NCBI GenBank assembly: GCA_964503235.1
Contig: CAZCZJ010000003.1
Location: forward strand, 1 to 61,368
DNA from: an uncultured Dehalococcoidaceae bacterium
GTDB lineage: Bacteria; Chloroflexota; Dehalococcoidia; Dehalococcoidales; RBG-16-60-22
Length of the DNA stretch: 61,368 nt
Direction: 5' to 3'
The position numbers and the translations under genes are program-made. The notes below the pieces were generated by a model. That model was not told where the DNA came from. It saw only the letters and a program-made list of their open reading frames with translations, and ran no database searches. Positions 19,736-51,624 of this stretch are shown piece after piece (within the stretch, counting starts at the first letter, position 1; each line of letters starts with the position of its first letter).

Positions 19736-19764
19736 ATGAAGTAGATAAAAATAAACGGATAAAG

Positions 19765-20526: not shown

Positions 20527-20549
20527 TTGACAAATAAAGGGGGTAGTAA

Positions 20550-21605: not shown

Positions 21606-21638
21606 AAACCACAGCTGCAAATAAACAAGGAGAAACTA

Positions 21639-33300: not shown

Positions 33301-34324
33301 CGGCGGAGCTAATAGTGTTATTTCTTATAACAATTCCGTACTGTGCCTTGACCAGACCAACACCGCTACTTAGACCCTCACCCCCTGTAGTCCAGTCGAA
33401 GGAGCAGTTCTGGACGAGGTGATTATAGCAAACAATATTATCCCTTTCGGGTGTTGGAACCTCTAGAGATTTACCCTTAAAACTAACCGCCCCATATAGA
33501 TTGGTATAGCCATCACCATGAGCTATGCCATATTCAGTATGGTTATTATGAAATGTGCAATTTTCTATGATGCTGTCGTGGGATACGGATAGATAAATCG
33601 CGGGGTAGAGACTGTCTCTGAAGTTCAGGCCTTTGAACCGGATATAATTTTTTTGAAGCCCGTAGAAAAGAATTCCGATTGTCCCATTACCGGTTATGAT
33701 AACATTCTCGTTATTGTACGGCATGAATGTAATCCAGCCGGTAGAAGTGCCTGAAACCGAAAGCTCCACCTCCTCGGAATAAGTTCCTCCCCTGATAAGA
33801 ATTGTAGAACCCGGAGAGGAAACATCAGATGCCTTTTGTATCGTCCGGTAGGGACTGCCGATTGAGCCGTTCCCCGTCGTGTCATTGCCATTTGTAGCTA
33901 CATAAATATAATTGGTACCAATCGGGGGGTTATCATTCCTTGTTGCGGTGGTTGTGGAAACGGAACCACCGCCGCCGTTAGCATCAATAAGAGTAACCCT
34001 GATTTCATACTGGGTATTAGCCGTAATCCAGAAGATATTTCCCCGGTACTGGCGTTCGGCCCGGTCGACATACATCTCGGGAGCCGTCTTCCAGGTTCCG
34101 CCTGATGGCCGGTATTCCAGGACAGCGCTGTTATTCTGGTTGTTGTCTCCGGAATAGTTAACGGTGACCCCGATACATTCGAAGGTAGGAATCGCGGAAA
34201 TGCTGCCCGGCGTTGTCCCGTCACCGGCGGCTGCGAGCACTGCGGGGGTAAACTCTATTGAGAATACTATGACCATAATCAGGATTATTATAGAAATACG
34301 GTGAAGCCTGAACTTGGACGTCAT
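30374..34324 (-). CDS. large cell-surface protein: signal peptide, FN3-like domain, right-handed parallel beta-helix (pectate-lyase/DUF1565-like), cadherin/VCBS-like Ig domain, tandem CARDB domains, C-terminal TM anchor
   Basis: - N-terminal hydrophobic leader ending AVLAAAGDG.
- YIYVATNGNDTTGNGSIGSPYRTIQKA..ILIRGGTYSE, the beta-helix entry motif.
- GILGNDNDVDGDSLTV..FNYTPDPGYTGPDSFSYRANDG.
- Two CARDB-like repeats (VVNTGDLTGDYEV / LSNIGDLPGVYEA).
- The C-terminus reads LGIIIGGTLIVLLTVLAIVIYRRRE. Confidence 0.8.
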   Translation of the reverse strand: MTSKFRLHRISIIILIMVIVFSIEFTPAVLAAAGDGTTPGSISAIPTFECIGVTVNYSGDNNQNNSAVLEYRPSGGTWKTAPEMYVDRAERQYRGNIFWITANTQYEIRVTLIDANGGGGSVSTTTATRNDNPPIGTNYIYVATNGNDTTGNGSIGSPYRTIQKASDVSSPGSTILIRGGTYSEEVELSVSGTSTGWITFMPYNNENVIITGNGTIGILFYGLQKNYIRFKGLNFRDSLYPAIYLSVSHDSIIENCTFHNNHTEYGIAHGDGYTNLYGAVSFKGKSLEVPTPERDNIVCYNHLVQNCSFDWTTGGEGLSSGVGLVKAQYGIVIRNNTISSAGYQLWDGVSTYPEDVDSAEDYLESCDFYGNKIYRAADDGLQIEGGDKNTRIWNNYIEDCDIGIATCPVLEGPAYVFRNVVWNASGRLDSKATKTGKQTTGYGRLYYYHNTYYMVDANNGITQTNDDIGNIVSRNNIVYCGRYVIELKNSINVPCDFDYDFLWSTDVPDNNYFVKYGADGANTLAILQSKTGQEMHGVSTADAGFANAASGNFQLRADSPCVNAGVALQGFNDANSPWPYSGGGPDIGAYEYTGVPAEDNTPPYTSGHNPQKYSTTAAPNTNIVVHIRDTGTGVDQSSIVMRVEGSTVSPTITGNKYDYTLSYNPPVDFDYEQVVDVMINARDLKATPNVMNQESYNFTIRSEGENQPPVGVSDYYSNEPDTTLSVPAPGILGNDNDVDGDSLTVIPISGVSHGSLTLNPNGSFNYTPDPGYTGPDSFSYRANDGEVNSNSVVVTINITSAGGGGGSSDSGNDDDDNVEITSVFNFVTSSGKFNIEVIAQSSDNSVKINIPKETVGTNSMGVRLINIVIEKMIGSVPPPPDDAVIVGSVYDIAPDGAKFEPTVNLIMSYSDNQVPYGVAEKNLIIGTFDRITGEWQAIPSSTNQADNTVSANLEHFSTYALLAYTHPASFEIADISTYPDIVTCGSNVDIQATVVNTGDLTGDYEVCLMLDDEVYATELITLDGGDIGTVIFSTVPDIAGIHRISIGVVEKTFTAETYEAPAEFITSNITITPSVIYLGERVEISTLLSNIGDLPGVYEAILKMDNEFVDSKYVDIAGGDSEIIIFTITPETEGEHAISIGEKVVFFTVKSTENVDVEIITMPKPEISRFDITPTYNPGTSKIESTRIDYQIKNSENLDAGAMLVLKVFRDGELWEEIPLITLNQVEADQDSGYLSYVPSEGWSMGTYIFEAELQGPNGVVHSIQFEKFTLIEESLTKGISWGSLGIIIGGTLIVLLTVLAIVIYRRREMLRGYVE

Positions 34325-36124: not shown

Positions 36125-36739
36125 TTAGAACGCGAACCTGTTCCTCAGTTTTTCGCCGAGTTTCCTGCCTTTGATATATAACCCGTTAAATTTTCTGAGC
36201 AAGGCAGTTTGAAGGCTTTGAGCCTTTACCTCTCCATACCTTTCATAGAAAACGATATCTCCAAGGGGTTTCCTCGCAAAGACTTTGTCCTTTACCTCAG
36301 CTCGATATCCTAACGGTGTATAAGCAATAACTCTGATTTCATCGGGGACTCCCAGAGCTTCCTTCACCTGCTTCTCGTCGAAAGCTCCTATCCAGCAGGT
36401 CCCCAGCCCCAAGTCAGTGGCGGCCAGTATCAGGTGTTCCAGGGAAATCCCGATGTCCAGCATATAGGTGTCCGTGCCGGGCTTGCGGCCGGATTCTTCA
36501 GGGTTGATACACGCTACGATGATGATCGGCGCCTCGCTGAGCCATTTATTTTCTTCCCCGGCAAGCTTTGCTTTAATGTCCTGGTCTGTGACGATAATGT
36601 ACTGCCAGCATTGACGATTTTTAGGTGAGGGCGCCAGCCGGGCCGCTTCCAGAACGGTTTTCAGGTACTCATCGGGTACCGGAACAGATTTATATTTTCT
36701 GATACTACGCCTTTTTTTTACTACTTCCATGAATTCCAT
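36125..36739 (-). CDS. nitroreductase-family flavoprotein
   Basis: RRSIRKYKSVPVPDEYLKTVLEAARLAPSPKNRQCWQYIIV. Confidence 0.8.
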   Translation of the reverse strand: MEFMEVVKKRRSIRKYKSVPVPDEYLKTVLEAARLAPSPKNRQCWQYIIVTDQDIKAKLAGEENKWLSEAPIIIVACINPEESGRKPGTDTYMLDIGISLEHLILAATDLGLGTCWIGAFDEKQVKEALGVPDEIRVIAYTPLGYRAEVKDKVFARKPLGDIVFYERYGEVKAQSLQTALLRKFNGLYIKGRKLGEKLRNRFAF

Positions 36740-36799: not shown

Positions 36800-39196
36800 T
36801 CAACCGATGTGCCGGTACAGGAACGAGCCAGCTGCCATGCAAACCCACTTGGGCATTACATACGAGAATAACCGCATTGCCCGATATTTTACGCTGCTCT
36901 CGGTAACGTTGAAAAAGCCCCTTTTAACCGGAAAATAATAGTAAGGTGATGGAATCGCTTTTGCTCCCCACCTGCTTTTAAAGGTGCGGAGTCCTTCGTC
37001 TTCCGGTGAGCAACGCCCGAAATCAAAGTATTTATAATTATGGGCACAGGCATATTTGATTGCCTCCCAGATTATCAGGTGGTTGGGACGTTTCTTAAGG
37101 TATTTCTCGTCGGAAGCATTGTATTTATAATAAATGGTATCACCGTGGCCGAGAAAGACGACCCCGGCCACGGTCTTGCCTTCACATTCAGCTATCCCCA
37201 CGAAACCTTGGTTCTGCGAGATGACATTACGGAAAATACTTTTAAAGAAATTGCGCGGTTGCGGGAATACCCCGAGTTTCTTGCGCGTCGCCACATGCAA
37301 CTTGTAAAAAAGTTCTATATCTGCTTCGCTACTCGTCAGGCGAACGGTAACGTCGCGTTTCTCAGCCTGGTGGATACATCTTCGGACACTGTGGTGAAAC
37401 CTGGCGCTTAATGCCTTTAGGTCCGGCTCCAGTTCCAGCAGGTATCTGGTATAGTAGTCATAACTTATCAGTTTAAGCTTGGCTTCGGGAGATTCATTTT
37501 GCCATCCCCTGATTTCTACGTAAGAAGGGGCACCCTTACCCGTGTTAAGCTCGTTCTTGGTTTTGTTCAGTAGCAATTCAATATCCGCTTTGTCCCCGCC
37601 CAGGGGCCAGCAATAGTCAGAGAAGGGAAGGCAGACCAGCCTTCTCCCTGTGAATTTACACCGGATAAAGTAAAAGGGTATCGCCGCTCTCATCTGACCA
37701 TCCTCATTCTCGGTGATGTGGTATCGCGGCGAATAGTCATAAGTTTCTTTAATCACCCGGGCCCAGGCGGAAGTATGAAAAACTGTGCTGTTTTCCTGAC
37801 CGGTAACGAACTCGTCCCACATACTATCGGTTGTTGGATCGATAATCCTGACCGGGGTAGTCCTTTCGTCTTGGATAGGCTGAATCTGGCTGTACTTCCT
37901 GAAGGAAAGGAGGCTCCGTATCTTCTTTAGGAGTCTGCTATTTAATACTCCTGTCCTTTTCCAGAATCTAAGAAACAGGATGAATTCCACAATAAAGGGC
38001 AAAGGGTCATCGAGCGACGCAACCGCAAATTGTTTTTTCCCTTTAAGAGAATTCAGATATTTGCTCAAGCTCATCTTCCCTTTTAGAAGCTCGATAGCCA
38101 CGGTAGGAATATCCGTTATCAGGCGAATCCACTTAACTCCAACGCTATAACCATCCTGCTTCACCTTTTCTCCCAGAGTATCCAGATATGAAAGATAAGG
38201 CAGGTCTACCCCGGCGCCGATGGCTATGCTATGCCAACCCCAGGGCCTGGGATTTATTTCAATCAACTTGAATTGCCCATCTCTTGAATCCAGCATGAAT
38301 TCGACTTCGGATAGGCCGGAGTATCCCATTGCAGTAAGAATTTTCTTACTTGTTTCTACCAGCTGAGGTAAATATACGGTCTGAGCGTAAGTGGTAGCAT
38401 GGCCGAAATCCATGGGATGCTGTCTTGGACGCCGCACAGCTACATGAGCCAATAGCTTCCCGTCGCTGCATAAAGAACCGACCGAGAACAGGCCTTCGGT
38501 TCTCCCGGGTATTAATTCCTGTACCATGAGTGTTTGCGAAGGGTTGATTTCCGGAACCATTCTCGTATATTCGTCAATGAGCTGTTTTTTATTTTCAACA
38601 CGAATCGCCTTTTTCTGAGTCCTACTATAGAAAGGCTCTTTTATCGATGGTTTGAGAATGGCCGGAAATCTCACTTCCAGCTCTCTCACTTCCTCGATAC
38701 TGCGTGGATAACATGTGGCGGGTATGGCAATACCCACCTTCTCCGCCAGCTGGTAGGTCAGCATCTTATCATAAGCATATTTGACTATGTCCCATTCCGG
38801 AGTTGTCACCCTGTAATATTCTTCCAGTTGTTGCTTGTGTTGAGATAGGAAACAAACTGTTTCATCATCGTTGGGATATATTATCCATCCGTTAAGATTG
38901 TCTCTTATGGCTAGGTCAAGCAGGAACTTCAGGAAAATTGAATCTTCATTTACATAGGGACATTTTAGAAATTTCGTTTTATATCTTGAAAACCGGGCGA
39001 TACACTGCCTGTTACTAAGCACATAGACCGGGACACCCCGTTCACCAAGGCTCCTCACGATGCCGAGAGCTTGAAAAGTGCCTCCAATAATAACCGCCCC
39101 TACTTTTTCTTTCTGGTTGTCAGACATAGTTGACTTCTTTTTATTCAAATGGCTTTCTTTCATATTCTTCTTCACCGTATGATTCAATATCGCCAT
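36800..39196 (-). CDS. fusion protein: N-terminal ATP-grasp carboxylate-amine ligase and C-terminal FemAB/CelD-like transferase
   Basis: - N-terminal half: VIIGGTFQALGIVRSLGERGVPVYVL.., FPAILKPS.., LMVQELIPG.., SEVEFMLDSRDGQFKLIEINPRPWGW, the ATP-grasp pattern.
- C-terminal ~350 aa: FHTSAWARVIKETY.., FHHSVRRCIHQAEK.., LHVATRKKLGVFPQP.., YKYFDFGRCSPEDEGLRTFKSRWGA. Confidence 0.75.
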   Translation of the reverse strand: MAILNHTVKKNMKESHLNKKKSTMSDNQKEKVGAVIIGGTFQALGIVRSLGERGVPVYVLSNRQCIARFSRYKTKFLKCPYVNEDSIFLKFLLDLAIRDNLNGWIIYPNDDETVCFLSQHKQQLEEYYRVTTPEWDIVKYAYDKMLTYQLAEKVGIAIPATCYPRSIEEVRELEVRFPAILKPSIKEPFYSRTQKKAIRVENKKQLIDEYTRMVPEINPSQTLMVQELIPGRTEGLFSVGSLCSDGKLLAHVAVRRPRQHPMDFGHATTYAQTVYLPQLVETSKKILTAMGYSGLSEVEFMLDSRDGQFKLIEINPRPWGWHSIAIGAGVDLPYLSYLDTLGEKVKQDGYSVGVKWIRLITDIPTVAIELLKGKMSLSKYLNSLKGKKQFAVASLDDPLPFIVEFILFLRFWKRTGVLNSRLLKKIRSLLSFRKYSQIQPIQDERTTPVRIIDPTTDSMWDEFVTGQENSTVFHTSAWARVIKETYDYSPRYHITENEDGQMRAAIPFYFIRCKFTGRRLVCLPFSDYCWPLGGDKADIELLLNKTKNELNTGKGAPSYVEIRGWQNESPEAKLKLISYDYYTRYLLELEPDLKALSARFHHSVRRCIHQAEKRDVTVRLTSSEADIELFYKLHVATRKKLGVFPQPRNFFKSIFRNVISQNQGFVGIAECEGKTVAGVVFLGHGDTIYYKYNASDEKYLKKRPNHLIIWEAIKYACAHNYKYFDFGRCSPEDEGLRTFKSRWGAKAIPSPYYYFPVKRGFFNVTESSVKYRAMRLFSYVMPKWVCMAAGSFLYRHIG

Positions 39197-39226: not shown

Positions 39227-39946
39227 TTAATTCGGGACGTCGTAAACCTCACTTCGGTCGCTTTTATCCTGGTGGTATTTCCTGAACGTAAAGAATAATA
39301 ATTTAAATCCCGGTGCATATCCAAACCGCTTAAATCCTGTCCTTTCGGCTCCTTTTATGGAGGCTATGTTGTCTTCTTCAATATAGCCTATTACCCATTT
39401 ATAGCCCCGCTCCTTGCAGATTCGCAAGCGGTCAATAATGATTGAAGGATGGAGTCGGTTACCCCGGAACTTCTCAAAAGTATAAGCTCCTGCCAGAATA
39501 ACCTCATCTTCCCGGAGAGTGTGGAACCATTTTCTAAACCCACCCTCTACTTTTTTATCATCCGTTGGGAATATAGTAAACGCTATGGTACATATCTCAT
39601 TGGTATCCACCGTCCTGGCAACATAGCAGTTTTGGTAGCCGTCTTCGAACATCCACTTACGAAATAGTACCTTTTCAACCATCTTCTTGCTTTCCGCTTT
39701 GGCTTTCTCCATTACCTCTTCCATGTCTTCTTTGGTGGCCAGCTTAAGAGTATATTTAATATTGGCTTCGATTTTTGGCAGTTCGAACTGCTCCAGATTC
39801 AAGGATAGACCAATCTGGTTAGACCGGCTGTATATATGCTGTTTCAACTTCTTCAGAAAAACTCTGAGGCCAGCGATTTTTAATAGCATGACTCCGTAGT
39901 ACATCAAGCCCAGGATTCTCTTTAATATTGCTTTTATTTTTTTCAT
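39227..39946 (-). CDS. GNAT-family N-acyltransferase (tentative)
   Basis: The C-terminal half has GNAT-like beta4-alpha3 features (AGAYTFEKFRGNRLHPSIIIDRL..GYIEEDNIASIKGAERTGFKRFG). This is a weak, motif-level call. Confidence 0.5.
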   Translation of the reverse strand: MKKIKAILKRILGLMYYGVMLLKIAGLRVFLKKLKQHIYSRSNQIGLSLNLEQFELPKIEANIKYTLKLATKEDMEEVMEKAKAESKKMVEKVLFRKWMFEDGYQNCYVARTVDTNEICTIAFTIFPTDDKKVEGGFRKWFHTLREDEVILAGAYTFEKFRGNRLHPSIIIDRLRICKERGYKWVIGYIEEDNIASIKGAERTGFKRFGYAPGFKLLFFTFRKYHQDKSDRSEVYDVPN

Positions 39947-39960
39947 CTTGGATGCATCCG

Positions 39961-41271
39961 TCAGCTCTTGAATTTGCTCTCCAGAATCCTCATTATAAAA
40001 TCCGTTATTGTTATGGAGTCGATATCTCCGGTTATGGATAACGCGCTTCTGGCCCCATCAGGCCAACGCCAGTACCTGAGCAAACAGGCATTCGATTGTT
40101 CGATTTTTTTTGAAAGAGCCTTTTCATCAGCCTGGTTGAACTTCTTTAAATCATCGAGATATATCCCGCACTCTTCCGGTTTTTTATTGAATTCTACAAT
40201 ATATCCTTCGCTCTGTAAAAACTTGACGGCTGTAGTAGAAGACCCTGCTGCTATGCCGATAACAGGTCGCACTGGACTTTCCAGGGAAAAATCTCTATCC
40301 CTGATGTACAGATAACTATCTAACCACCGGTCTGCAGATACGTTTACTTTACCGTTTTTTAATAATATTGTGGCTCGCTCGGAGCACTCCGCTTTTACTC
40401 CGTATCTGCCGTCACTCCGGTGTTCAATTTTGAAAGTGAACTTGTCTCTCTCCCGCCACCACTCGGCGATCTCTCTTAAAGTGGCTATCCAGACCGGCGG
40501 ATTTAATTCTCTGGCCTTTCGGAGTATTTTCACCAAACCGTTTTCACAGTGTATAATCCTTTCAGGATGTAACGAGAAATTAAACAGCTCACCGCTGTCA
40601 TATATCCGCTGCATGATTTCCACCCAGATATCACTGATTTTTTCCGAGTCGGTAATACCCATTCGTTCCACCAGTACTTCATCGTCTGGAATAGAAACCG
40701 GAATTTCTATCAACCCGTCTTCGAATCTAGGCAAAGATAAATACTTTTCGGCATCCAGCGGCTGGTAAAACTCCTTCAGGAGACTGAGGTTGTCCTTAAC
40801 ATACGTCGAGTAACTGTCGATATCGTTTACCGGCCACCACAAGGCGCGGCTGCTATCGTACAGGAAACCCAGGTCACTCAATATCGGCGTCGTGTGTTCA
40901 TTGGTCCGCAGAAAGGGAGCGCGAAAACCGACGAAAGGAACCTGGCATCGATTGAAGGTATGCATCGCTCTCTCAAAGTGATGGCCCATTTTTTCGTTAT
41001 CGACTACCTTATAGTCGATGTGTACGTATCCGTGTACCGCGAACTCGACTCCCCGATAGCTTAATTCCTTGATGTATCCCGGGTGTCTTGCCAGCACCAC
41101 TGCGGTAAGGGCAAATGTCGGGATACAGCCGGCGCTATGCGTTACATCGAAATATCTTTTAAGACAGCGTTCAAACTTCTTCGAGGAAATGCCGAAGCGG
41201 CACGCTACCGTAATAATCCTCGATATTAAATTTCTGAGTCCCCTTGATTTTGATAAAAAGCTTAATTTCAT
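39961..41271 (-). CDS. polysaccharide deacetylase-like protein (NodB-type N-terminal domain plus a C-terminal domain of unknown function)
   Basis: IPTFALTAVVLARHPGYIKELSYRGVEFAVHGYVHIDY and FVGFRAPFLR resemble the carbohydrate-esterase-4 pattern. The canonical TFDDG motif is not obvious. Confidence 0.6.
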   Translation of the reverse strand: MKLSFLSKSRGLRNLISRIITVACRFGISSKKFERCLKRYFDVTHSAGCIPTFALTAVVLARHPGYIKELSYRGVEFAVHGYVHIDYKVVDNEKMGHHFERAMHTFNRCQVPFVGFRAPFLRTNEHTTPILSDLGFLYDSSRALWWPVNDIDSYSTYVKDNLSLLKEFYQPLDAEKYLSLPRFEDGLIEIPVSIPDDEVLVERMGITDSEKISDIWVEIMQRIYDSGELFNFSLHPERIIHCENGLVKILRKARELNPPVWIATLREIAEWWRERDKFTFKIEHRSDGRYGVKAECSERATILLKNGKVNVSADRWLDSYLYIRDRDFSLESPVRPVIGIAAGSSTTAVKFLQSEGYIVEFNKKPEECGIYLDDLKKFNQADEKALSKKIEQSNACLLRYWRWPDGARSALSITGDIDSITITDFIMRILESKFKS

Positions 41272-41374
41272 CTCGGCCGCGGCATCACCACCAAGTCAGC
41301 AAAAAGCTGGAGTTCGGCTCTCTGAGAGCCAATATTCCCTATACTAACTCTTGTGCCATTACCTCCTTAAATAT

Positions 41375-44300
41375 TCACGCTTTGTTGCTCAGTCGTCCCA
41401 CTGCCGCCTCAATACTTTCATTTATTTTTTCCGCCAATAGCGGTACAAAAGGCTCGGCGAGCATCTGCCTGGGATAAACCGGCAGTTTATAAAGCTCAAT
41501 CCCCAAGGGGGCTATTTCACCCCAGTTCACTTCCGGCAGAGTATTTTCTTTGTATTCCTTAGCCGGAACAATATTTACAATCGGCCAGGGATAGGCATCT
41601 TTCGGCACGTATTCATTGGCTGCCCTGTTGTTAGTTTCTTCTAACAAATAGAGCAAAGAATGGTACCCGTTATCTTTACGAAACTCGAACCCGCTTGATT
41701 TTACCGTCTCAATTAGCAACGCTAGCCTCTCTTTAATAAGGTCCATCCTCCGTTTCATGAAATTTTTTTCTCCGGATAGTAATCTTCCCCGGTTAAAATT
41801 GATTTTCTGAAGATAGTAATAAATCTTATCAAGTATCGACCGGTCTGGCATATTACCCCAATTGTAGGTCTCCATAAAAATCAACATAGCCACTTCCTGC
41901 CCCCGGGCACGCAATCGCTGAGCCATCTCCAGCGCCACCGTACCGCCCATGCAAAAGCCACCCAGCAAATACGGGCCGGCGGGTTGAACAGCCAGAATCT
42001 CCTGCAGGTACTGCTCCGCCATGTCCTCAATACGGGTGTGAAAAGGCTGTTCTCTATCCAGCCCGCGTGATTGCAGCCCATACACCGCCTGTTCCGGCTT
42101 TAAGTACCGCAGCAGGTCAGAATAGATTAAAATATTACCTCCGCCGGCGTGCGCGAGATAAAGAGGCAATCCGGAATCTCCAGGCTTCATCTCTACCAGG
42201 CATTGCCAGGAATCCGCGCCCCCACTGTCGCGGATAAGCTTGGCCAGTGTATCAATCGTAGGTGCTTTATAGAGAGTGGCTATGGGGAAATTTTTCTGGA
42301 ATATCCTCTCGATTTTGCTGAACAGTTGAACGGCTATCAGGGAGTTGCCGCCCAGATCAAAAAAGTTATCGGTGTTGCTCACATGCCTGACGCCGAGTAC
42401 ATTCTGCCATATCGCGGCGAGAGTCTCTTCTACACTTGTCTCGTGATTTTCAAAAACATTCGCTGGCGGCTTATTCCTCGATTCCTGCACTGGCCGAATC
42501 GCTTCATCCCCCTCATTTATCGAAACGGCTTCGCCGGAGGCTATTTCAGGTATCTGTTGGCCGGTGTCAACCCAGTAGCGCTGGCGTTCGAAGGGATAGG
42601 TCGGCAAAGATACGCGATGCCGGAGCTCGTCTTGGTAAAAACCGTACCAGTCCACTTCAAGTCCGGCCATCCAGAGCTGCCCGAGCGTGTTCAGGATATA
42701 AGCCATATCTGAGGTTGCCTCTTTCGGGTGATGCGTCGAGGCGAGTATAACGCTTTCCGGTGTTGCCGCCGGATGCTGCCTGGCCAGTGTGCTGAAGGTG
42801 TTACCCGGCCCGACCTCAAGAATAACCCTGTCCGGTTCTTTTAATAATTCCTGCAGGCAATCGGAAAACCGTACCGTCTGCCGCAGTTGCCTGCCCCAGT
42901 ACTCCGGATTGGTGGCCTCCTCCGAGGTAATCCAGGTGCCGGTAACGTTGGAAAGGAATGGAATCTGCGGCGCATTCAGTTTGACCTGCCCTACCTCTTC
43001 GACAAGGGCACTCACTACGGGTTCCATCATTCCGGAATGAAAAGCATGAGAAGTGTGTACGTGACGGCAGGTTACCTCTTTATCGGCTAGCTGCTTTTCC
43101 AGTGCGCCAACAGCCTCTTTTTCTCCGGAAACAACGCAAAGCGAAGGCCCGTTGATAACCGCCAGCGATAGCCTTTCATCAAGTAACTGTCGCACCTCTT
43201 TTTCGGGGAGAAACACGGCCAGCATCGAGCCTGCAGGCATTCCCTGCATCAACCGGCCCCGGGCAGCCACCAGTGCCAGGGCGTCCTCGAGAGAAAACAC
43301 CCCCGCCAGGCAGGCGGCAACATATTCCCCGATACTGTGCCCTACCATCGCCGCCGGGTGCACACCCCAGGATTTCCATAGCTGCGCCAGGGCGTATTCG
43401 ATGGTGAACAGCGCCGGCTGGTTCATGGATGTCTGCATCAGCTTTTGCGTCGCGTCGGCGGTAACCGGTCCCTCCGGATACATTATGTCACGTAAGTCCA
43501 GTTTAAGGTGGGGTCGGAGAATCTCCGAGCAGCGGTCTATCTGCTCCCGAAAAACCGGCTCGGTATCATAGAGTTCCCGCCCCATGCCGACATACTGGGA
43601 GCCCTGCCCTGAGAATATGAACGCCACGTCGCGTTTACCTTTATCTCCGGTGGAATCCAGCACCCGTTTCTTATCAACCATCCTCAGGGTTTCTATAGCA
43701 TCGTCGATATCCTGACAGACCAGCATACGCCGGTGATTAAACTGTTTCCGCCCGATCTGGAGCGTATAGGCGATATCGGCGAGGTTAGCTCCCCCGTGAT
43801 TCCTCAGGTATTCCTCCAGGTTTACCGTCGCAGTCTCCAGAGCCGTGGCCGTCCGGGCTGAGAGGAGTAATAACTGCCAGCCCCGCGACTTTCCTGAATC
43901 ATCTACTCTGGGAGCTTCTTCCAGGATGACATGGGCGTTGGTACCACCAACACCGAAAGAACTCACCCCCGCCCGGCGCGGTATGCTGTCGGGTTGCCAC
44001 TCCGCTAATGCCGTATTGACGTAGAAAGGACTGCTCGCAAAATCAATATCATGATTTGACTCTTTATAGTTTATATTGGGAACCAGCATTTTCTTATGGA
44101 GCATCATGGCGGTCTTTATCAGCCCCACTATACCGGCGGCGGCGTCCAAGTGCCCGATGTTAGCCTTGATAGAGCCGATTGCGCAGGATTTTTCCACGGT
44201 AGCCCGGTTATGAAATGCCTGTGTCAGTGCCGCGATCTCAACGGTATCCCCCAGATATGTCCCGGTACCGTGGGTTTCAATATAGGAAATGGTTTCCGGC

Positions 44301-45223
44301 TTGACATCTGCATTGGCCAGAGCCATGGCGATAACTTCGGCCTGACCATCGACACTGGGAGCGGTAAAACTGACCTTGTTAGCGCCGTCATTATTCATGG
44401 CGAGCCCTTTTATAACGGCGTAAATCTGGTCTCCGTCTCTTAGCGCATCCTCAAGGCGTTTCAGCAAAACGACTGCGGCACCATTACTGAAGACGGTACC
44501 ACTAGCCTGCGAATCGAAGGGCCGGCAATGGCCGTCGGAAGATACTATCTCACCTTCCTGATATAGATAACCACTGTTCTGCGGACAGTTGACAAAGCTG
44601 CCGCCAGCTAACGCCATGTCACACTGGTAGCTCATCAGGCTGTCAAAGCTCTGGCAGACAGCTACCAGCGACAATGAACAGCCGGTATAAAGACTCACGC
44701 TCGGGCCCCTGAGATTTAATTTATACGAGACACGTGTGGCTAAATAGTCAGGGGCATTTGCCAGATTAGTCTGGTGTTCACCGAAAGTCTTGATCAGATT
44801 TCGGTTACAGGCTATGATATTGGAGAAATAGGTATTGTATCCCGTACCGCCATAGACAGCAATCAACCCTTTATAAGTATCGGGATTATAACCCGCGTCT
44901 TCAAGGACTTCCCAGGCGCACTCAAGAAAGAGACGCTGCTGTGGGTCAATTAGTGAAGCTTCTCGGGGGCTGATGCGAAAGAAGCCGGCATCGAATTTAT
45001 CGACATCATTAATCATCCCCCTGGCCCTGACATAGTTAGGGCTGTTTCTTAATTCTTCACTTATGCTCGCGTCCAGGTCATTATCACCCATAAAAGTGAT
45101 GGACTCGACGCCCTCGCACAGGTTACGCCATAGCTTTTCGGTATCAGGCGCGCCGGGGAATCTCCCCGCCATACCGATGATAGCGACTCCAGATAAATTA
45201 GGATTACCCATAGAATCGGTCAT
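41375..45223 (-). CDS. type I polyketide synthase module KS-AT-T-TE, with no KR/DH/ER
   Basis: - KS: DPQQRLFLE, TGCSLSLVA (Cys), HGTGT, NIGHLDAAAG.
- AT: FIFSGQGSQYVGMG, GHSIGEYVAA, HAFHS (malonyl-type motif).
- Carrier: FFDLGGNSLIAVQL (PCP-like).
- TE: GPYLLGGFCMGGTVALEMA, where Cys (codon 41951-41953) sits in place of the GxSxG serine. Confidence 0.9.
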   Translation of the reverse strand: MTDSMGNPNLSGVAIIGMAGRFPGAPDTEKLWRNLCEGVESITFMGDNDLDASISEELRNSPNYVRARGMINDVDKFDAGFFRISPREASLIDPQQRLFLECAWEVLEDAGYNPDTYKGLIAVYGGTGYNTYFSNIIACNRNLIKTFGEHQTNLANAPDYLATRVSYKLNLRGPSVSLYTGCSLSLVAVCQSFDSLMSYQCDMALAGGSFVNCPQNSGYLYQEGEIVSSDGHCRPFDSQASGTVFSNGAAVVLLKRLEDALRDGDQIYAVIKGLAMNNDGANKVSFTAPSVDGQAEVIAMALANADVKPETISYIETHGTGTYLGDTVEIAALTQAFHNRATVEKSCAIGSIKANIGHLDAAAGIVGLIKTAMMLHKKMLVPNINYKESNHDIDFASSPFYVNTALAEWQPDSIPRRAGVSSFGVGGTNAHVILEEAPRVDDSGKSRGWQLLLLSARTATALETATVNLEEYLRNHGGANLADIAYTLQIGRKQFNHRRMLVCQDIDDAIETLRMVDKKRVLDSTGDKGKRDVAFIFSGQGSQYVGMGRELYDTEPVFREQIDRCSEILRPHLKLDLRDIMYPEGPVTADATQKLMQTSMNQPALFTIEYALAQLWKSWGVHPAAMVGHSIGEYVAACLAGVFSLEDALALVAARGRLMQGMPAGSMLAVFLPEKEVRQLLDERLSLAVINGPSLCVVSGEKEAVGALEKQLADKEVTCRHVHTSHAFHSGMMEPVVSALVEEVGQVKLNAPQIPFLSNVTGTWITSEEATNPEYWGRQLRQTVRFSDCLQELLKEPDRVILEVGPGNTFSTLARQHPAATPESVILASTHHPKEATSDMAYILNTLGQLWMAGLEVDWYGFYQDELRHRVSLPTYPFERQRYWVDTGQQIPEIASGEAVSINEGDEAIRPVQESRNKPPANVFENHETSVEETLAAIWQNVLGVRHVSNTDNFFDLGGNSLIAVQLFSKIERIFQKNFPIATLYKAPTIDTLAKLIRDSGGADSWQCLVEMKPGDSGLPLYLAHAGGGNILIYSDLLRYLKPEQAVYGLQSRGLDREQPFHTRIEDMAEQYLQEILAVQPAGPYLLGGFCMGGTVALEMAQRLRARGQEVAMLIFMETYNWGNMPDRSILDKIYYYLQKINFNRGRLLSGEKNFMKRRMDLIKERLALLIETVKSSGFEFRKDNGYHSLLYLLEETNNRAANEYVPKDAYPWPIVNIVPAKEYKENTLPEVNWGEIAPLGIELYKLPVYPRQMLAEPFVPLLAEKINESIEAAVGRLSNKA

Positions 45224-45226
45224 GTA

Positions 45227-47176
45227 TCAACTTCCCTTAGATGATAGCCTCTGGCGTGAAAAGGATTTTCTTCTTCGTTGCGCCCGCTCCTGGATATTAT
45301 GAAAAGACGGCTGGCTGCCCCGGTTCTGACTCAGGTATTTCGCCATTGCCCTGATATTGGGATATTGAAATAGCTTGACGACGGGCATCTCGATTTGGAA
45401 TGTCTCCCGCACCAAGGTGATTAATTTTACGGCTAAAATAGAAGTACCACCCAGGTCAAAAAAGTTGTCCTCGATGCCGATCTCTTCAAGACCTAATACG
45501 CGGCACCACAAATCGTTCAGGACTTTCTCCTGGTTCGTGGAAGGACTAATATAGGTCTGCTCCATTTCGGGTCGTGCCCGGTCAGGTTCGGGAAGTGCCC
45601 CCCTATCTATTTTACCATTATGTGTTAAAGGTAACTCGTTTAGCGTTACAAATACGGCCGGCAACATATAATCGGGCAGTCTACCCGCCAGGAATCGGCG
45701 TAGTGACTCCACCGTGGGTTTTTGACCCGCTGGTGGCACGATATATCCGCCAAGACGCATATTCCCGAAACCATCTTGTTTAACGGTAACCGCGGCGTCC
45801 CGTACCTGCGGGTGTTGCCTGAGAACAACTTCGATTTCACCGATTTCAACCCGGTTCCCGTAGAGTTTGATCTGTCCATCGAGTCTGCCTTCAAACCGGT
45901 AGTTGCCATCGGGCATCAAGTTACCCTGGTCGCCCGTTTTGTAGATTATTTCCTGTCGGTCTATCACCAGGGGATTCTGAACAAAGGAAACTTCATTTAA
46001 TGCCGGCGCATCATAGTAGCCCTTTGTCATAAAAGGTGTCTTGATATAAATCTCTCCGGTTTCACCAACCGGGCTGAGCTTACCGTTATTGATAACCAGC
46101 GCCTCCGTATCCGGTATCGGTTTGCCAATCGGTACTATCTCGCCAGGTGCAAAATTATTATCGCTGATACGATAGAACAACTTGGCGAGAGTTGTCTCGG
46201 AAGGCCCGTAAAGATTAACAAGCTCGACACGGTTCCCGCAGACCTGCCTCCAGCAAACAACATCATTTCCGTACAATGCCTCACCGGCTATCAGAGCATA
46301 TTTCAGATCCGGCAGTGCGTCACTATCGCTGTTTGTTTCCTTAATCTCTCTTGTCAGCAGGCGAAAAACGGTCGGGACGATGTGCGTTAGTGTTATGCGG
46401 TTATCCCGCATCCAGTAAAGCAGCTTCCTTGGATTATGTCTGGTTTCTTCATCCGGGATGCACAGAGTGCCGCCGGCGAACAATGGCACGAAGATATCCC
46501 TCAGGCTCACATCGAAGGTCACCGCGGAAAGCAGACTTATCCGCACGTCCTGATTTAAATTGAATTCACCAATCTCCCAGTGGATAAAGTGGCTCAGCCC
46601 CTTCTGGGAGCCGAGAATAACTTTTGGTTCTCCGGTGGAGCCGGAAGTGGTAACAAGGTAGCAACCGTCATCCGGCCGGGAAGCGATGGGTGGATTGTCA
46701 TCCGGAAAGCTGGCATTATTTGTTATGGCGTTGCCGCCGGGTAGGTTTTTCAGATTCAGGTTGCCAGCCTCGTCAATAACCAGTAGATAACTCGGATTGA
46801 TAGGTGGTTTAAATCTCTGTAGCTTTGCCAGGATTTCATTCTCAAGAACCGTGCTGGTGATGAAGATATTCGGCTTTGTCTTACTCAGGATATTACCCAG
46901 GCGTGCATCCGGGAACTCCCTGTTCAGCGGCATGAATACGGCGCCGGCCTTGAGTGCGCCCAGTACGGCCATCACATACTCAATCGACGCATTAAAATAA
47001 AGCCCGATAATTTCCTGAGCACCTACACCATTCTTGATTAGAGCATGCGCAATCCGGTTAGCATTGGCGTTTAGCTCGCTATAAGTGACGCCGCGCGAAC
47101 CATCATCAATGGCCGTATTCGCCGGAAATCTCCCGGCGGCTCTTTCAAATAAACTGTGTATTATCCTGTTATCCAT
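45227..47176 (-). CDS. stand-alone NRPS adenylation-thiolation (A-T) didomain
   Basis: A3 LVTTSGSTGEPKV, A4 FDVSL, A5 NLYGPSETT, A7 YKTGDQG, A8 GRLDGQIKLYGNRVEIGEIE, A10 NGKIDR. T domain FFDLGGTSILAVKL. There is no C, E or TE domain. The stop lies 3 nt before the PKS start. Confidence 0.9.
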   Translation of the reverse strand: MDNRIIHSLFERAAGRFPANTAIDDGSRGVTYSELNANANRIAHALIKNGVGAQEIIGLYFNASIEYVMAVLGALKAGAVFMPLNREFPDARLGNILSKTKPNIFITSTVLENEILAKLQRFKPPINPSYLLVIDEAGNLNLKNLPGGNAITNNASFPDDNPPIASRPDDGCYLVTTSGSTGEPKVILGSQKGLSHFIHWEIGEFNLNQDVRISLLSAVTFDVSLRDIFVPLFAGGTLCIPDEETRHNPRKLLYWMRDNRITLTHIVPTVFRLLTREIKETNSDSDALPDLKYALIAGEALYGNDVVCWRQVCGNRVELVNLYGPSETTLAKLFYRISDNNFAPGEIVPIGKPIPDTEALVINNGKLSPVGETGEIYIKTPFMTKGYYDAPALNEVSFVQNPLVIDRQEIIYKTGDQGNLMPDGNYRFEGRLDGQIKLYGNRVEIGEIEVVLRQHPQVRDAAVTVKQDGFGNMRLGGYIVPPAGQKPTVESLRRFLAGRLPDYMLPAVFVTLNELPLTHNGKIDRGALPEPDRARPEMEQTYISPSTNQEKVLNDLWCRVLGLEEIGIEDNFFDLGGTSILAVKLITLVRETFQIEMPVVKLFQYPNIRAMAKYLSQNRGSQPSFHNIQERAQRRRKSFSRQRLSSKGS

Positions 47177-47189
47177 TTTTATCCTGAAA

Positions 47190-48533
47190 TCACATAAAAT
47201 CCGTTTTTACTTTCGAGATTACATAGTGCCGCTTACCCGCCTCGGTGGGTTCGATATTATCTACCTGTATTACGGATATGTTCATCATACCGCCGAAAGA
47301 TGGCTGCAATTCATTACGGATATCTTCTAACAGAGCCGGAGCAACTCTTTGCCGACATAATAGACGTACCTCTAAATGTTCTCTATCTGGTTGATAAATC
47401 TGGAATTGCTGTACCCCATATTGATATTTGGATATAATTATATCATCGACGATTACTGAGTGAACAATCTGGCCGTCAGGTCTTACAAGAAGATCATTAT
47501 TCCGTCCGACTATCTCTTGGAGGACAGGCATACCCCGCCCGCAGGAACAGCCCCCGGTTTCATAAATCCCCACGTCGCCGTTTTTATATCTGATAAATGG
47601 CATGGCGTACTGGTTCAAGGCCGTGACGACCACCTCTCCCATCTTTCCATCATCGACGACCTGCCCACTTTCTACCAGTTCAAGGTAGCGCTCTTCGTTC
47701 ACGTGGAGACCTCCTTGGGGACACTGGTAAGCATAACTGAATATCTCCAGGGAGCTGTAATGGTCGGCCACCGGTGCGTGAAAAATCTCCTCGAAAAGAC
47801 CCCGCATTGAAGGCGTTATTTTCTCAGCCGTGGTTTCTATGAGCCTGGGTTTAATAGACGTGATATGGCGCTCTTTAAGATAATGAGCGAATACGGATAG
47901 TGCCTGCGGATAGACTCTGATTATTTCTGGTTGCCACCTGATAAGCATTTCGGTAAACGCTTGCATTTTGTTTTCGGTCATCGTCCGGGCATTCAAGTAC
48001 CGGTATCGCTTGATTTTGGCAGCCAGGCGGTCTTTCCATTTCCACTCCGGATAATCCTGTAAGGAGCCTGTAATCCAGGCCATCTTATTTCCCCGTCTTA
48101 CCCCGTACCAGCCGCGGCACCGGGCTTCAACGGCATAGCTCCAGTACGCCGCGGAGCTATCCATGATGAACCGCATCGGTTCTCCGGTAGAACCGGATGT
48201 TTTCCCCTCGAAGACACCTCCTCGATAAACGGTTGAAACGAGGTCTCCACGATGGTTTTTCACATCAGTCCTGGTTAGGAAGGGGAGAGCCTGAAAGTCT
48301 TTCAAGCTTTTAATGTCCTGCGGGTGAATACCTTCACGCTGGTAGCGCTGACGGTAAAACGGCACGTATTCATAGGCGTAGCTCACCAGCCGCTGGATTT
48401 TCTTTAATTGTACCTCTTCCAACTCGCCCCTTGTAAGCCATTGGGAACTTTCCAGCTCCTTCAGACAACGCCGGATTTCCTGGTGCCCCGGTAACAGGTA
48501 CTTCCTTAAAAACTGGTAAACACTCGAATACAT
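47190..48533 (-). CDS. CapK/PaaK-like adenylate-forming ligase (phenylacetate-CoA ligase family), copy 1
   Basis: 447 aa. Canonical AMP motif GKTSGSTGEPMRF, plus the family features YRQRYQREGIHP..LPFLTR and C-x-CGRG. Confidence 0.8.
   Translation of the reverse strand: MYSSVYQFLRKYLLPGHQEIRRCLKELESSQWLTRGELEEVQLKKIQRLVSYAYEYVPFYRQRYQREGIHPQDIKSLKDFQALPFLTRTDVKNHRGDLVSTVYRGGVFEGKTSGSTGEPMRFIMDSSAAYWSYAVEARCRGWYGVRRGNKMAWITGSLQDYPEWKWKDRLAAKIKRYRYLNARTMTENKMQAFTEMLIRWQPEIIRVYPQALSVFAHYLKERHITSIKPRLIETTAEKITPSMRGLFEEIFHAPVADHYSSLEIFSYAYQCPQGGLHVNEERYLELVESGQVVDDGKMGEVVVTALNQYAMPFIRYKNGDVGIYETGGCSCGRGMPVLQEIVGRNNDLLVRPDGQIVHSVIVDDIIISKYQYGVQQFQIYQPDREHLEVRLLCRQRVAPALLEDIRNELQPSFGGMMNISVIQVDNIEPTEAGKRHYVISKVKTDFM
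48273..48403. repeat. 131-nt patch ~95% identical to 49690-49820, inside paralog 1
   Basis: Hand alignment shows 7 mismatches in 131 nt, including a 48-nt perfect run (CTGAAAGTCTTTCAAGCTTTTAATGTCCTGCGGGTGAATACCTTCACG). Confidence 0.85.
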
Positions 48534-48609: not shown

Positions 48610-49950
48610 CTAATAGCCATCCGGCTTAACTTCCGAAATAATGAATCGATGCTTGCCCGCTGCTGTCAATTCAATGTGGTCTACCATCTTTACAGATATT
48701 TGCATTTTCTTACCGAAATATGGCTGTAATTCATTCCTGATATTTGTTTCCAGCTTGATTGCATTTGGTTTCTGCTTGCATAACAATCGAACCTCGAGGT
48801 GTTGCTGATCTGGTTGATAAATCTGGTATCGGTATACTTCCGGTATTTTCTCTACGACGTCATCAACACTGGTCCAATGAATAACCTTTCCATCAGGGTT
48901 CACAAGTAAATCGCAGTCTCGTCCTACCACCTCACGGAGAACCGGCATACCCCGACCGCACCTACAGTCCGTGGGATCGATAATCCCCACATCATTGTTC
49001 TTATACCTGATAAAGGGCATAGCATACTGGTTTAATGGTGTGACAACAATATCTCCCATCTGGCCGGGAGGGACAACTTGGCCGCCGGATACCAGTTCGA
49101 GATAGCGGTTTTCTATTACATGTAGGCTCCCCTCAGGACACTGATAAGCAATAATGCCTGATTCCCAAGAACCATAACCGTCGGCTATCGTTGCTTGAAA
49201 AACGTGCTCGAATAACTGCCGTTGGTGATGTGTCATTTTCTCAGCACAGACCTCGATTAGCTTAGGTCTGATAGACGGCAATTTATGTTCCTTAAGATAT
49301 CTGGCGAAAATGTAGAGAGCTGTCGGATATGCCCTAAACATATCCGGCTTCCATCTTGATAACATCTCGGCGAAGTCCCGCATTTTCAAATCGTCCATTG
49401 TACGGCTGTTTAAATACCGTCGTCGACGTATTTGAGCACGGAGACGTGAACGCCAGTTCCAGCTCGGAAAATCTTTTTGATTGCCCCAGACCCAAGCTAT
49501 CTTGTCCCCCGGTGTGATCCCATACCAGCCGCGGCACCGGGTTTCAACCGCAGAGCATTCCATTAATGAAGACTTGTCCATTATAAAACGCATCGGATGC
49601 CCGATGGAACCACCAGTAGTATACTCGTAAGTACTGCCTTGATATACCGAAGATACAAGTAATTTCAGGTTATTATTCACATCATCCCGGGTTAGGAAGG
49701 GGAGAGACTGAAAGTCTTTCAAGCTTTTAATGTCCTGCGGGTGAATACCTTCACGTTGATAGCGCTGCCGGTAAAACGGCACGTTTTCATAAGCATAGCT
49801 CACCAGCCGCTGGATTTTCTCGAGCTGTATTTCTTCCAATTCGTATCTTGTCAGCCACTCTGTTTTTTCCAACTCCTCCATGCAGCGCCGGATTTCCTTA
49901 TGCCCCGGTAGCAGGTACTTCTTTGATAACTCGTAAAGATAGGAATACAT
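48610..49950 (-). CDS. CapK/PaaK-like adenylate-forming ligase, copy 2 (divergent AMP motif)
   Basis: 446 aa, collinear with copy 1. The N-terminal ~95 aa are nearly identical. The AMP/P-loop motif reads TTGGSIGHPMRF rather than TSGSTGEPMRF. Confidence 0.8.
   Translation of the reverse strand: MYSYLYELSKKYLLPGHKEIRRCMEELEKTEWLTRYELEEIQLEKIQRLVSYAYENVPFYRQRYQREGIHPQDIKSLKDFQSLPFLTRDDVNNNLKLLVSSVYQGSTYEYTTGGSIGHPMRFIMDKSSLMECSAVETRCRGWYGITPGDKIAWVWGNQKDFPSWNWRSRLRAQIRRRRYLNSRTMDDLKMRDFAEMLSRWKPDMFRAYPTALYIFARYLKEHKLPSIRPKLIEVCAEKMTHHQRQLFEHVFQATIADGYGSWESGIIAYQCPEGSLHVIENRYLELVSGGQVVPPGQMGDIVVTPLNQYAMPFIRYKNNDVGIIDPTDCRCGRGMPVLREVVGRDCDLLVNPDGKVIHWTSVDDVVEKIPEVYRYQIYQPDQQHLEVRLLCKQKPNAIKLETNIRNELQPYFGKKMQISVKMVDHIELTAAGKHRFIISEVKPDGY
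49690..49820. repeat. 131-nt patch ~95% identical to 48273-48403, inside paralog 2
   Basis: See 48273-48403. Confidence 0.85.
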
Positions 49951-50877: not shown

Positions 50878-51624
50878 TTAAGGTTCCCATTCGAAATATA
50901 CGGGTTCAAAATATTGTCCTTCTTTAACAAACGCAGCTTGGTATCCCTCATTGACGTTCAAATCGCAAATTGACCACCGGGCGGCAGCTTCTGAATCTCC
51001 TTCAATACTTACCAATCTAGCCGGCTCATCCCGCGCCAGCGATACATCGAATTTATCCAGCGGGTAAGACAGGCCGTCTCCGGTAGCTTTAATAAAGGCC
51101 TCCTTGCGCGTCCAGCAGTTGAAAAACGCCTGCCTCTTCCCACTCTCAGGCAGTATGCGGAAAACCTCGTTCTCTCCCGGAGAGAAGAAACTCATAGCGA
51201 TTTGATCCATCTCAGGCATGTCTCGTATCCGCTCGATGTCAATACCTATTTCACGGTTCCTGATAAAAGCGTATATTGCCAGCCCCTCCGAGTGGGATAA
51301 ATTAAAATGAATCTTTTTCCGGTTAAAATCATCGGCGAGTGCCGGCTTGTCATTCTTCCCATAAGAAAATAGCACTCTTTCTGGTTCAACCCCAAGATAA
51401 CAACCCAGTAGTATTCTCAATATCCCCCGTCGTACGATAAACCGGTTTCTCTCCTTTTCAAAATGAAATCGCCCGGCCCTTTTTCTCTCACCGGCAACCA
51501 GCAGACTGTGATACGGCGATATCGTTCTATCCAGAAAAGCACTCCAGATATGGACTTCGTCTCTGGCTAATTCAAGGTCTGTCGATTTGACTATATTTAA
51601 TTGACGGTTCATCTTTATATCCAC
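50878..51624 (-). CDS. Sfp-type 4'-phosphopantetheinyl transferase
   Basis: FNLSHSEGLAIYAF, IGIDIERI, WTRKEAFIKATG. Confidence 0.85.
   Translation of the reverse strand: MDIKMNRQLNIVKSTDLELARDEVHIWSAFLDRTISPYHSLLVAGERKRAGRFHFEKERNRFIVRRGILRILLGCYLGVEPERVLFSYGKNDKPALADDFNRKKIHFNLSHSEGLAIYAFIRNREIGIDIERIRDMPEMDQIAMSFFSPGENEVFRILPESGKRQAFFNCWTRKEAFIKATGDGLSYPLDKFDVSLARDEPARLVSIEGDSEAAARWSICDLNVNEGYQAAFVKEGQYFEPVYFEWEP

Follow-up and report, generated by a model that had tools for sequence, protein, structure and literature searches.

A Cysteine-Type Thioesterase Domain in a Polyketide Synthase of an Uncultured Dehalococcoidaceae Bacterium and Its Relatives with Proline at the Triad Histidine Position

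We analysed a stretch of 61,368 nucleotides (the window) on contig CAZCZJ010000003.1 of an uncultured Dehalococcoidaceae bacterium. It contains a single-module type I polyketide synthase (PKS) gene that ends in a thioesterase (TE) domain. We found that the nucleophile of this TE is a cysteine (Cys1091), that the acid of the catalytic triad is kept, and that a proline (Pro1251) stands where canonical TEs have the triad histidine. Sequence comparison indicates that TEs of this type, for which we coin the name Cys/Pro TEs, form a large clade among the type I TE domains that is still uncharacterised and is defined by the Cys nucleophile, a kept Glu or Asp after strand beta6, and Pro for the triad His after strand beta8. 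The window TE probably hands its product to another molecule instead of cutting it off with water.

TE domains set how polyketide and nonribosomal peptide products exit their assembly lines, and they are almost automatically annotated as Ser-His-Asp hydrolases or cyclases. A very large branch of them is described here with Cys and without the His. A bare Cys would be only moderately interesting; more weight attaches to the coupling of Cys with Pro, to the scale on which it occurs, and to its association with glycan genes. In addition, members of the branch are repeatedly found next to genes for sugar modification, in phyla of which few members have been cultured.

Cysteine at the Nucleophile Elbow

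The TE domain comprises residues 997-1282 of the PKS (41378..42235, minus strand), and PF00975, an AlphaFold2 (AF2) model, and Foldseek all assign it an alpha/beta-hydrolase fold. PF00975 matched residues 1020-1146 with 89.6 bits, above its gathering threshold of 26.4, and the match spans profile positions 2-130 of 226, that is, the N-terminal half of the TE alone. The minus-strand reading of 41300-42300 gives AGPYLLGGFCMGGTVALEMA, in which the TE core is GGFCMGG. An earlier note on this DNA had claimed that a Cys encoded by TGC at 41951-41953 replaces the Ser of the GxSxG motif, and the translation, the PDB alignments, and the modelled elbow bear this out.

When the carrier-TE region was compared with the PDB using phmmer, Cys1091 (codon at 41951..41953, minus strand) shared a column with the catalytic residue of solved TEs. 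For instance, the aligned motif was GGWCFGG in AB3403 (GPYFLGGWCFGG), LGYSLGG in EntF (GPYYLLGYSLGG), and GWSLGS in Skyxy-TE, whose Ser-to-Ala mutant reads GWALGS. The AF2 model was built for residues 997-1282 from a 24-sequence alignment (Cys95 in model numbering is Cys1091) and was confident (pLDDT 86.9, pTM 0.86). In this model, strand 89-94 and helix 96-110 flank Cys95 and form with it a classical nucleophile elbow. Furthermore, the top Foldseek matches of the model in the PDB were all TE domains (AB3403, Skyxy-TE, Pks13, NocB, EntF, and Vlm2). A different Ser at the elbow was excluded by the profile alignments to solved TEs and by the secondary structure of the model. The alignments and the model confirm that this is a genuine type I TE domain with Cys1091 at the nucleophile position.

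A single base change would in principle turn TGC into a Ser codon (TCC or AGC), and nothing else favours a sequencing or assembly error. Read support was taken from assembled Logan contigs. Over 41800-42100 there were 0 differences across the contigs of four separately assembled salt-marsh metagenome runs (word depth 6-16), and 100% of the sampled 31-mers of 41375-42450 were present in three runs. The orthologue in a Dehalococcoidaceae metagenome-assembled genome (MAG), whose locus (L005) is syntenic with the window, likewise reads GGFCMGG. In addition, we aligned 101 TE-domain homologues and counted the residues in each column; 85 of the 93 with a residue at the nucleophile column have Cys, and 8 have Ser. 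An error is therefore hardly conceivable, and the doubt raised in the earlier note about the read support for this codon can be laid aside. Across the related loci, the Cys codon was TGC in 52 cases and TGT in 17, and the Ser of relatives was always encoded by TCN. The mixture of TGC and TGT suggests that the amino acid itself is under selection.

A Kept Acid and a Missing Histidine

Directly after strand beta6, at triad position I, stands Glu1118 (41870..41872, minus strand). Its column contains 46 Glu and 45 Asp among the 101 homologues and the query, and it aligns with the Asp of the IDT/LDT motif of AB3403 and EntF. In the AF2 model, the same residue (Glu122) directly follows strand 115-121.

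The triad His would be expected in the loop after strand beta8, where canonical TEs have Gly-x-His. The window TE has Tyr1250-Pro1251 there (41471..41476, minus strand), as seen in the profile alignment, the column counts, and the model. The family motif LPVYPxGMLxEPF was aligned on LPGDHSSIM of AB3403 in the comparison of the profile with the PDB, and the PGxH of relatives is PVYP in the window, with Pro1251 in place of the triad His. In the 101-homologue alignment, the canonical His column has 76 Pro and 11 His. In the model, Tyr254-Pro255 (Tyr1250-Pro1251) lie in the loop after strand 246-251. Of the two partners that the earlier note presumed for the Cys, the acid is present, and the His is missing from its canonical place.

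Several other residues were considered as a substitute for the lost base. A His in lid helix 1 (column 148, motif QxxxFH) is found in about 85% of the Cys/Pro clade and in 50% of the relatives that keep the canonical His (His-type relatives). Since half of the His-type relatives have it, the lid His predates the loss of the triad His. Furthermore, column 148 is Asn in the window protein (Asn1144; 41792..41794, minus strand), in the L005 orthologue, and in two close relatives, and it is Gln, Ser, Ala, or Gly in other members. The lid His was therefore not adopted as a relocated base. His1025 (42149..42151, minus strand) lies in the H-x-G-G-N loop after strand beta3, in the oxyanion-hole region, and is near-invariant (59/61 Cys/Pro and 20/20 His-type sequences). 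It is kept in canonical members too and so is not a clade-specific replacement. Two further candidates were set aside: His66 of the TE is Gln in the orthologue, and His192 sits in a low-confidence loop of the model.

Some residues are conserved in the Cys/Pro clade and absent from His-type relatives. They are Tyr/Phe94 (before the nucleophile), Asn125, Phe147, Glu162, Asp203, Pro224, Tyr228 (loop after beta7), Leu251, Pro255, and Met258. The window protein deviates from the clade consensus at Phe94, Asn148, Arg162, and Asn203. The orthologue shares the Asn at column 148 and departs from the consensus at Phe94, Arg162, and Asn203 as well. Since their lid is nonetheless under strong purifying selection (dN/dS 0.075), the two seem to represent a sub-lineage in which the lid has changed.

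Size, Spread, and Constraint of the Cys/Pro Clade

Both Cys and Pro were found in 61/61 sequences of the Cys/Pro clade. Over 81 genomic loci, the combined states were Cys+Pro in 60, Cys+His in 6, Ser+His in 14, and Ser+Pro in 0 (Fisher p = 2e-11, a descriptive value for related sequences, uncorrected for phylogeny). On a neighbour-joining tree, the Cys/Pro sequences formed one coherent clade with the window protein inside it, and Cys+His emerged several times amid Ser+His relatives. The window TE has all three motifs of the clade, which are G-G-[YF]-C-[ML]-G-G, [ED]-T-x-N after beta6, and L-P-V-Y-P-x-G-M-L-x-E-P-F after beta8.

When one genome per species was scanned, the relatives numbered at least 576. 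They came from Dehalococcoidaceae, Desulfobacteraceae, Anaerolineales, Syntrophales, and Nitrospirae, and also from many Acidobacteriota, Planctomycetota, Verrucomicrobiota, Ignavibacteria, and cyanobacteria. Among 1.84 billion cluster representatives, a search with the profile returned 14,639 proteins at E <= 1e-30, and the Cys/Pro state was present in about 100 of the best 150 of these. The architectures of the family open reading frames (ORFs) that bear a TE varied. There were 36 with acyl carrier protein (ACP)-TE, 24 with adenylation domain (A)-peptidyl carrier protein (PCP)-TE, and 9 with ketosynthase (KS)-acyltransferase (AT)-ACP-TE, together with multimodular nonribosomal peptide synthetases (NRPSs).

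Curated families for the clade were sought and none was found; NCBIfam gives the isolated TE sub-threshold matches to Pks13 and EntF alone, and the source databases use generic names. A literature search yielded no description of a Cys-containing, His-less TE clade and nothing on NRPS- or PKS-linked acylation of exopolysaccharides, which is weak evidence with most subscription journals outside the search.

The TE is not decaying and is under strong purifying selection. Compared with the L005 orthologue, its ratio of nonsynonymous to synonymous substitution rates (dN/dS) was 0.118, the lowest in the protein, and that of the lid was 0.075. It is also the best conserved domain of the PKS in this comparison, with 75% identity in the codon alignment (77% by tblastn) vs 56% for the KS.

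Two further features of the relatives were seen. Many relatives in the representative library have tandem TE-like domains (P0102, P0103, P0107, P0108, P0111, P0112, P0129, and P0130), and in some proteins one of the copies has Asp or Gly at the nucleophile column. Meanwhile, in a Caldilineaceae MAG (L001, 1-11218), a KS-AT gene lies about 8 kb from an ACP-TE gene, with only very small called ORFs between them. An insertion, a repeat region, or a broken gene may account for this gap.

The PKS Gene and Its Loading Gene

The PKS gene (41375..45223, minus strand) encodes 1282 aa with the architecture KS-AT-carrier-TE, according to the ORF list, the translation, and Pfam. The KS covers residues 13-386 and the AT residues 535-809. 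The catalytic motifs of the KS (TGCSLS, ETHGTGT, and KANIGH, giving Cys-His-His) and of the AT (GHSIGE and a malonyl-type HAFH) are intact. The carrier domain (residues 934-997; 42233..42424, minus strand) matched PF00550 with 52.3 bits and has an NRPS-type phosphopantetheine site, FFDLGGNS. Pfam found no ketoreductase (KR), dehydratase, or enoylreductase domain in the gene, and so the beta-keto group of the product is expected to remain.

Upstream on the same strand, a gene for 649 aa (45227..47176, minus strand) encodes an A domain and a carrier (Pfam AMP-binding and PP-binding) and stops 3 nt before the PKS start codon. It matched TIGR01733 with 341.2 bits (cut-off 317.4) and retains Asp235 and Lys517 in its A domain. 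The specificity code, read against GrsA as reference, is approximately DVRHLALLAK, for which no substrate could be assigned. The protein is predicted to load an alpha-amino acid starter. With this A-carrier gene, its TIGR01733 match, and the KR-less KS-AT-carrier-TE module, the amino-acid-derived beta-keto chain supposed in the earlier note is a fair prediction.

Gene Neighbourhood

Judged from its genes, the window is a polysaccharide biosynthesis locus. It includes two UDP-sugar dehydrogenases, an epimerase/dehydratase, a Bac_transf initiating transferase, a trio of GFO, hexapeptide-acetyltransferase, and DegT genes, several family 4 glycosyltransferases (GT4s), Wzy, Wzx, BacA, ABC-2 transporters, and two genes resembling carbohydrate esterase family 4 (CE4) deacetylases. 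The PKS gene belongs to a same-strand run that starts with a phosphopantetheinyl transferase (PPTase), a methyltransferase, two PaaK/F390-like ligases, and the A-carrier gene. After these come the PKS gene, a CE4-like gene, an ORF that we call orf239, an ATP-grasp-FemAB fusion, and a nitroreductase gene.

The HetI/Sfp-type PPTase (50878..51624, minus strand; NF042922 E 5e-61, under the cut-off) is needed to prime both carrier domains, and a PPTase was found near the TE at 17/45 Cys/Pro loci. The CE4 polysaccharide-deacetylase-like gene (436 aa; 39961..41271, minus strand) starts 103 nt after the PKS stop codon and matched PF01522 with 35.5 bits and, weakly, TIGR03006 (XrtA system). Its homologues lie near Cys/Pro TE genes at ten related loci (L003, L005, L008, L013, L020, L031, L032, L034, L035, and L041). 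The 798-aa fusion protein (36800..39196, minus strand; Pfam ATPgrasp_Ter, Acetyltransf_6, and FemAB) matched TIGR03019 with E 1.3e-38, under the cut-off. The ATP-grasp and FemAB/GNAT (Acetyltransf_6) parts, fused in the window, are separate genes at other loci. The nitroreductase-family gene at the end of the run (36125..36739, minus strand; PF00881, 113.6 bits) is syntenic in L005 and L008, and a 404-aa neighbour in L087 has a faint Nitroreductase match in Pfam.

To count neighbours, loci of at least 15 kb (45 Cys/Pro and 16 His-type) were probed with the window proteins. A homologue of ATP-grasp, FemAB, or GNAT6 was nearby at 17/45 Cys/Pro vs 1/16 His-type loci, and a glycan-type gene of any sort at 20/45 vs 3/16. 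Around six relatives whose Pfam context had been computed beforehand, GT4, UDP-glucose dehydrogenase, ATP-grasp_Ter, FemAB/Acetyltransf_6, PPTase, and methyltransferase genes recurred. Furthermore, FemAB-like, CE4-like, ATP-grasp, and PPTase genes together form a module that adjoins the Cys/Pro carrier-TE genes both in Chloroflexota (the window, L005, and L008) and in Acidobacteriota (L003, L013, L020, L031, L032, L034, and L035). This gene arrangement suggests one conserved, undescribed pathway unit. The GFO/hexapeptide acetyltransferase/DegT trio (19690-23431 in the window), together with Bac_transf, recurs near Cys/Pro TEs in other phyla (L015, L033, and L058). The trio is presumably similar to the route by which WbpB/D/E make 2,3-diamino sugars, and an amino sugar of this kind is a candidate acceptor.

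Other genes of the region were also noted. The tandem ligases resembling PaaK and coenzyme F390 synthetase (47190-48533 and 48610-49950) lie between the methyltransferase and A-carrier genes, and no homologue of either was found in the 87 related loci. The 239-aa orf239 (39227-39946) lies between the CE4-like and ATP-grasp-FemAB genes and has no Pfam or NCBIfam match; its counterpart in L005 is 68% identical and seems to be joined in one ORF to the FemAB-like part. Finally, a possible surface protein of 1316 aa is encoded at 30374-34324, flanked by the ABC transporter/BacA genes on one side and the acyl-decoration operon on the other; it has cadherin-like/Big_9 domains and matches DUF1565 faintly.

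Proposed Mechanism and Alternatives

We tentatively favour, as quite possible, that Cys1091 takes up the acyl chain and hands the acyl-S-Cys intermediate to a nucleophile other than water, likely an amine of a sugar or glycan. The A-carrier protein would load an alpha-amino acid, and KS-AT would add one malonate to give a gamma-amino-beta-ketoacyl thioester on the carrier domain. Cys1091 would then take over the chain from the phosphopantetheine thiol in a thiol-thioester exchange. A thiolate at the N-terminal end of the elbow helix is nucleophilic enough for such an exchange, which should therefore do without a general base. The acyl-S-Cys would be poorly hydrolysed, because there is no His to activate water, and a stronger nucleophile could take the acyl. 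The likeliest one would be the amine of an amino sugar or glycan, a choice suggested by the neighbouring CE4-like gene and by the conserved module. The amine might come from the CE4-like deacetylase, from the DegT aminotransferase route, or from an amino acid added by the FemAB/ATP-grasp proteins. The TE would thus be an acyltransferase that decorates the polysaccharide of its own locus, much as the Pks13 TE transfers a beta-ketoacyl chain to trehalose. The earlier note had offered a thioester acyl-enzyme for transfer to a glycan amine or hydroxyl as its alternative, and this is consistent with the loss of the His and with the neighbourhood.

Some points weigh against this transfer. The acceptor is inferred from the gene neighbourhood alone, and the association is partial, with a recognisable glycan gene within 10 kb at just 20/45 Cys/Pro loci. 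The many architectures in the clade make a single acceptor type unlikely. In addition, the lid His could serve as a relocated base in the 85% of the clade that have it; "His-less" would then be wrong for those members, the window protein itself having Asn.

If the acyl chain is not transferred, it could release itself. The free gamma-amine would attack the Cys thioester to form a five-membered lactam (a tetramic acid, or pyrrolidine-2,4-dione), and the small molecule would be unrelated to the glycan or attached to it later. The order A-carrier, then KS-AT-carrier-TE without KR, suits this chemistry, an amine nucleophile requires no His, in keeping with the Cys/Pro state, and the methyltransferase of the same run could O-methylate the enol. 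However, most clade members are ACP-TE or A-PCP-TE proteins that lack a KS and make no beta-keto-gamma-amino chain, and the linkage to FemAB-like, CE4-like, and ATP-grasp genes would be left unexplained. We regard the lactam as unlikely. Rather unlikely, too, is an ordinary hydrolytic or macrocyclising TE with another base (a His or Asn at column 148, His1025, Glu1118, or Tyr1250), in which Cys is merely a tolerated variant of Ser. A change from Ser to Cys is easy by itself, as the repeated rise of Cys+His among Ser+His relatives attests; most of the clade has the lid His, and AB3403 has a canonical triad with Cys. However, Pro occurs in all of the Cys/Pro clade and never with Ser, which points to a coupled change of mechanism. 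The lid His is also older than the loss, and the window protein and its orthologue lack it too, yet their lid has a dN/dS of 0.075.

The loss of the canonical His and the half-length Pfam match would suit a catalytically dead TE-like domain that serves as a structural or docking module, but this is very improbable: the Cys (61/61) and the H-x-G-G-N oxyanion loop are too strictly kept, and the dN/dS of the TE is the lowest in the protein. Still harder to credit is a strained-ring TE of the ObiF/SulM type that makes a beta-lactone or beta-lactam. It would share the GxCxG Cys nucleophile with the window TE, whose acid, however, is at position I and not after beta7, where the conserved Tyr1224 stands. 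A criterion used in genome mining for SulM-like TEs, the Gln-Cys-Asn motif, is absent, with Phe-Cys-Met in the window and Tyr-Cys-Met as the clade consensus. The triad His is absent as well, and the lack of a KR predicts a beta-keto group in place of the beta-hydroxyl that would serve as the ring-forming nucleophile on the substrate. Furthermore, ObiF1 was a weak PDB match through its carrier domain (E 1.8e-10 with the carrier-TE query), SulM had no PDB match, and neither was matched by the TE profile at E <= 1e-3. The marks of the ObiF/SulM TEs (a relocated acid, a Gly in position I, and Gln-Cys-Asn in SulM) are thus all absent here. The premise of the earlier note that Cys-TEs are few and tied to strained rings does not hold either, given the Cys of AB3403 and the very large Cys clade.

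A broader proposal is that the Cys/Pro TEs are an unrecognised class of carrier-dependent acyltransferases, which would N- or O-acylate amino sugars or exopolysaccharides through a His-independent acyl-S-Cys and would be found widely in Chloroflexota, Acidobacteriota, Planctomycetota, Verrucomicrobiota, and further phyla that are poorly cultured. We put this forward as speculative and rather doubtful. If these TEs are transferases, many of the "released acids" predicted by genome-mining pipelines are wrong, and assembly-line chemistry would be linked to the decoration of cell-surface polysaccharides by a testable route. A His-free Cys alpha/beta-hydrolase, if true, would also offer a useful case for the study of mechanism and a scaffold for engineering.

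Comparison with Known Systems

The nearest solved TE is that of AB3403, an NRPS of Acinetobacter baumannii (PDB 4ZXH/4ZXI), with E 2.4e-33 in the sequence search and 7.7e-36 with the profile, and it is also the best structural match (Foldseek E 6.5e-18). It resembles the window TE in its Cys nucleophile and in the acid at position I after beta6. The Cys of the AB3403 TE has been noted before, with the acid after beta6 and the canonical triad kept, and AB3403 is still termed uncharacterised (PMC11298585). The two differ in that AB3403 has His (LPGDH) and Asp, whereas the window TE has Tyr-Pro and Glu. An AB3403-like TE would combine Cys, an acid at position I, and the canonical His, and the window TE lacks the last of these. 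Furthermore, the AB3403 TE ends an NRPS module of condensation domain (C)-A-PCP-TE, whereas the window TE ends KS-AT-carrier-TE.

ObiF1 and SulM were compared through their published features (PMC6668435, PMC11298585). In the TEs of ObiF and SulM, the acid is relocated to a position after beta7, and SulM has the Gln-Cys-Asn motif; ObiF1 has Gly at position I, and ObiF1 and SulM form a thioester acyl-enzyme (PMC6668435, PMC11298585). The window TE is like them in having a Cys nucleophile in a GxCxG elbow. However, ObiF1 and SulM retain the His and act on substrates in which a beta-hydroxyl or beta-sulfamate is the nucleophile. After beta7 of the window TE (strand 219-224), no acid conserved at 80% or more was found.

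In the NodB/NodA and LpxC/LpxD systems, the amine of N-acetylglucosamine is deacetylated and then N-acylated from an acyl carrier protein. The window locus is like them in having a CE4-type gene beside genes for carrier-bound acyl chains in a glycan pathway. NodA and LpxD have unrelated folds without an alpha/beta-hydrolase TE, and the parallel is one of pathway logic alone. Meanwhile, the polyhydroxyalkanoate synthase PhaC is an alpha/beta-hydrolase with a G-x-C-x-G-G elbow, whose acyl-S-Cys is resolved by a nucleophile other than water. PhaC keeps a Cys-His-Asp triad, takes coenzyme A thioesters, and polymerises hydroxyacyl units.

The TE of the mycobacterial Pks13 uses Ser-Asp-His. Pks13 was among the top NCBIfam matches of the whole window protein and was the best match of the isolated TE, and its TE was among the top Foldseek matches; the Pks13 equivalog (NF040607) was not reached, with 614.8 bits against a cut-off of 2100. 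Pks13 differs in having an N-terminal ACP and in joining two fatty acyl chains, whereas an amino acid and malonate are predicted for the window. Its KS-AT-ACP-TE architecture lacks reductive domains, and trehalose receives the beta-ketoacyl product from its TE (PMC11649247). The window system resembles Pks13/FadD32 in its condensing PKS without reductive domains, in the separate adenylating enzyme that feeds it, and in its predicted beta-ketoacyl product.

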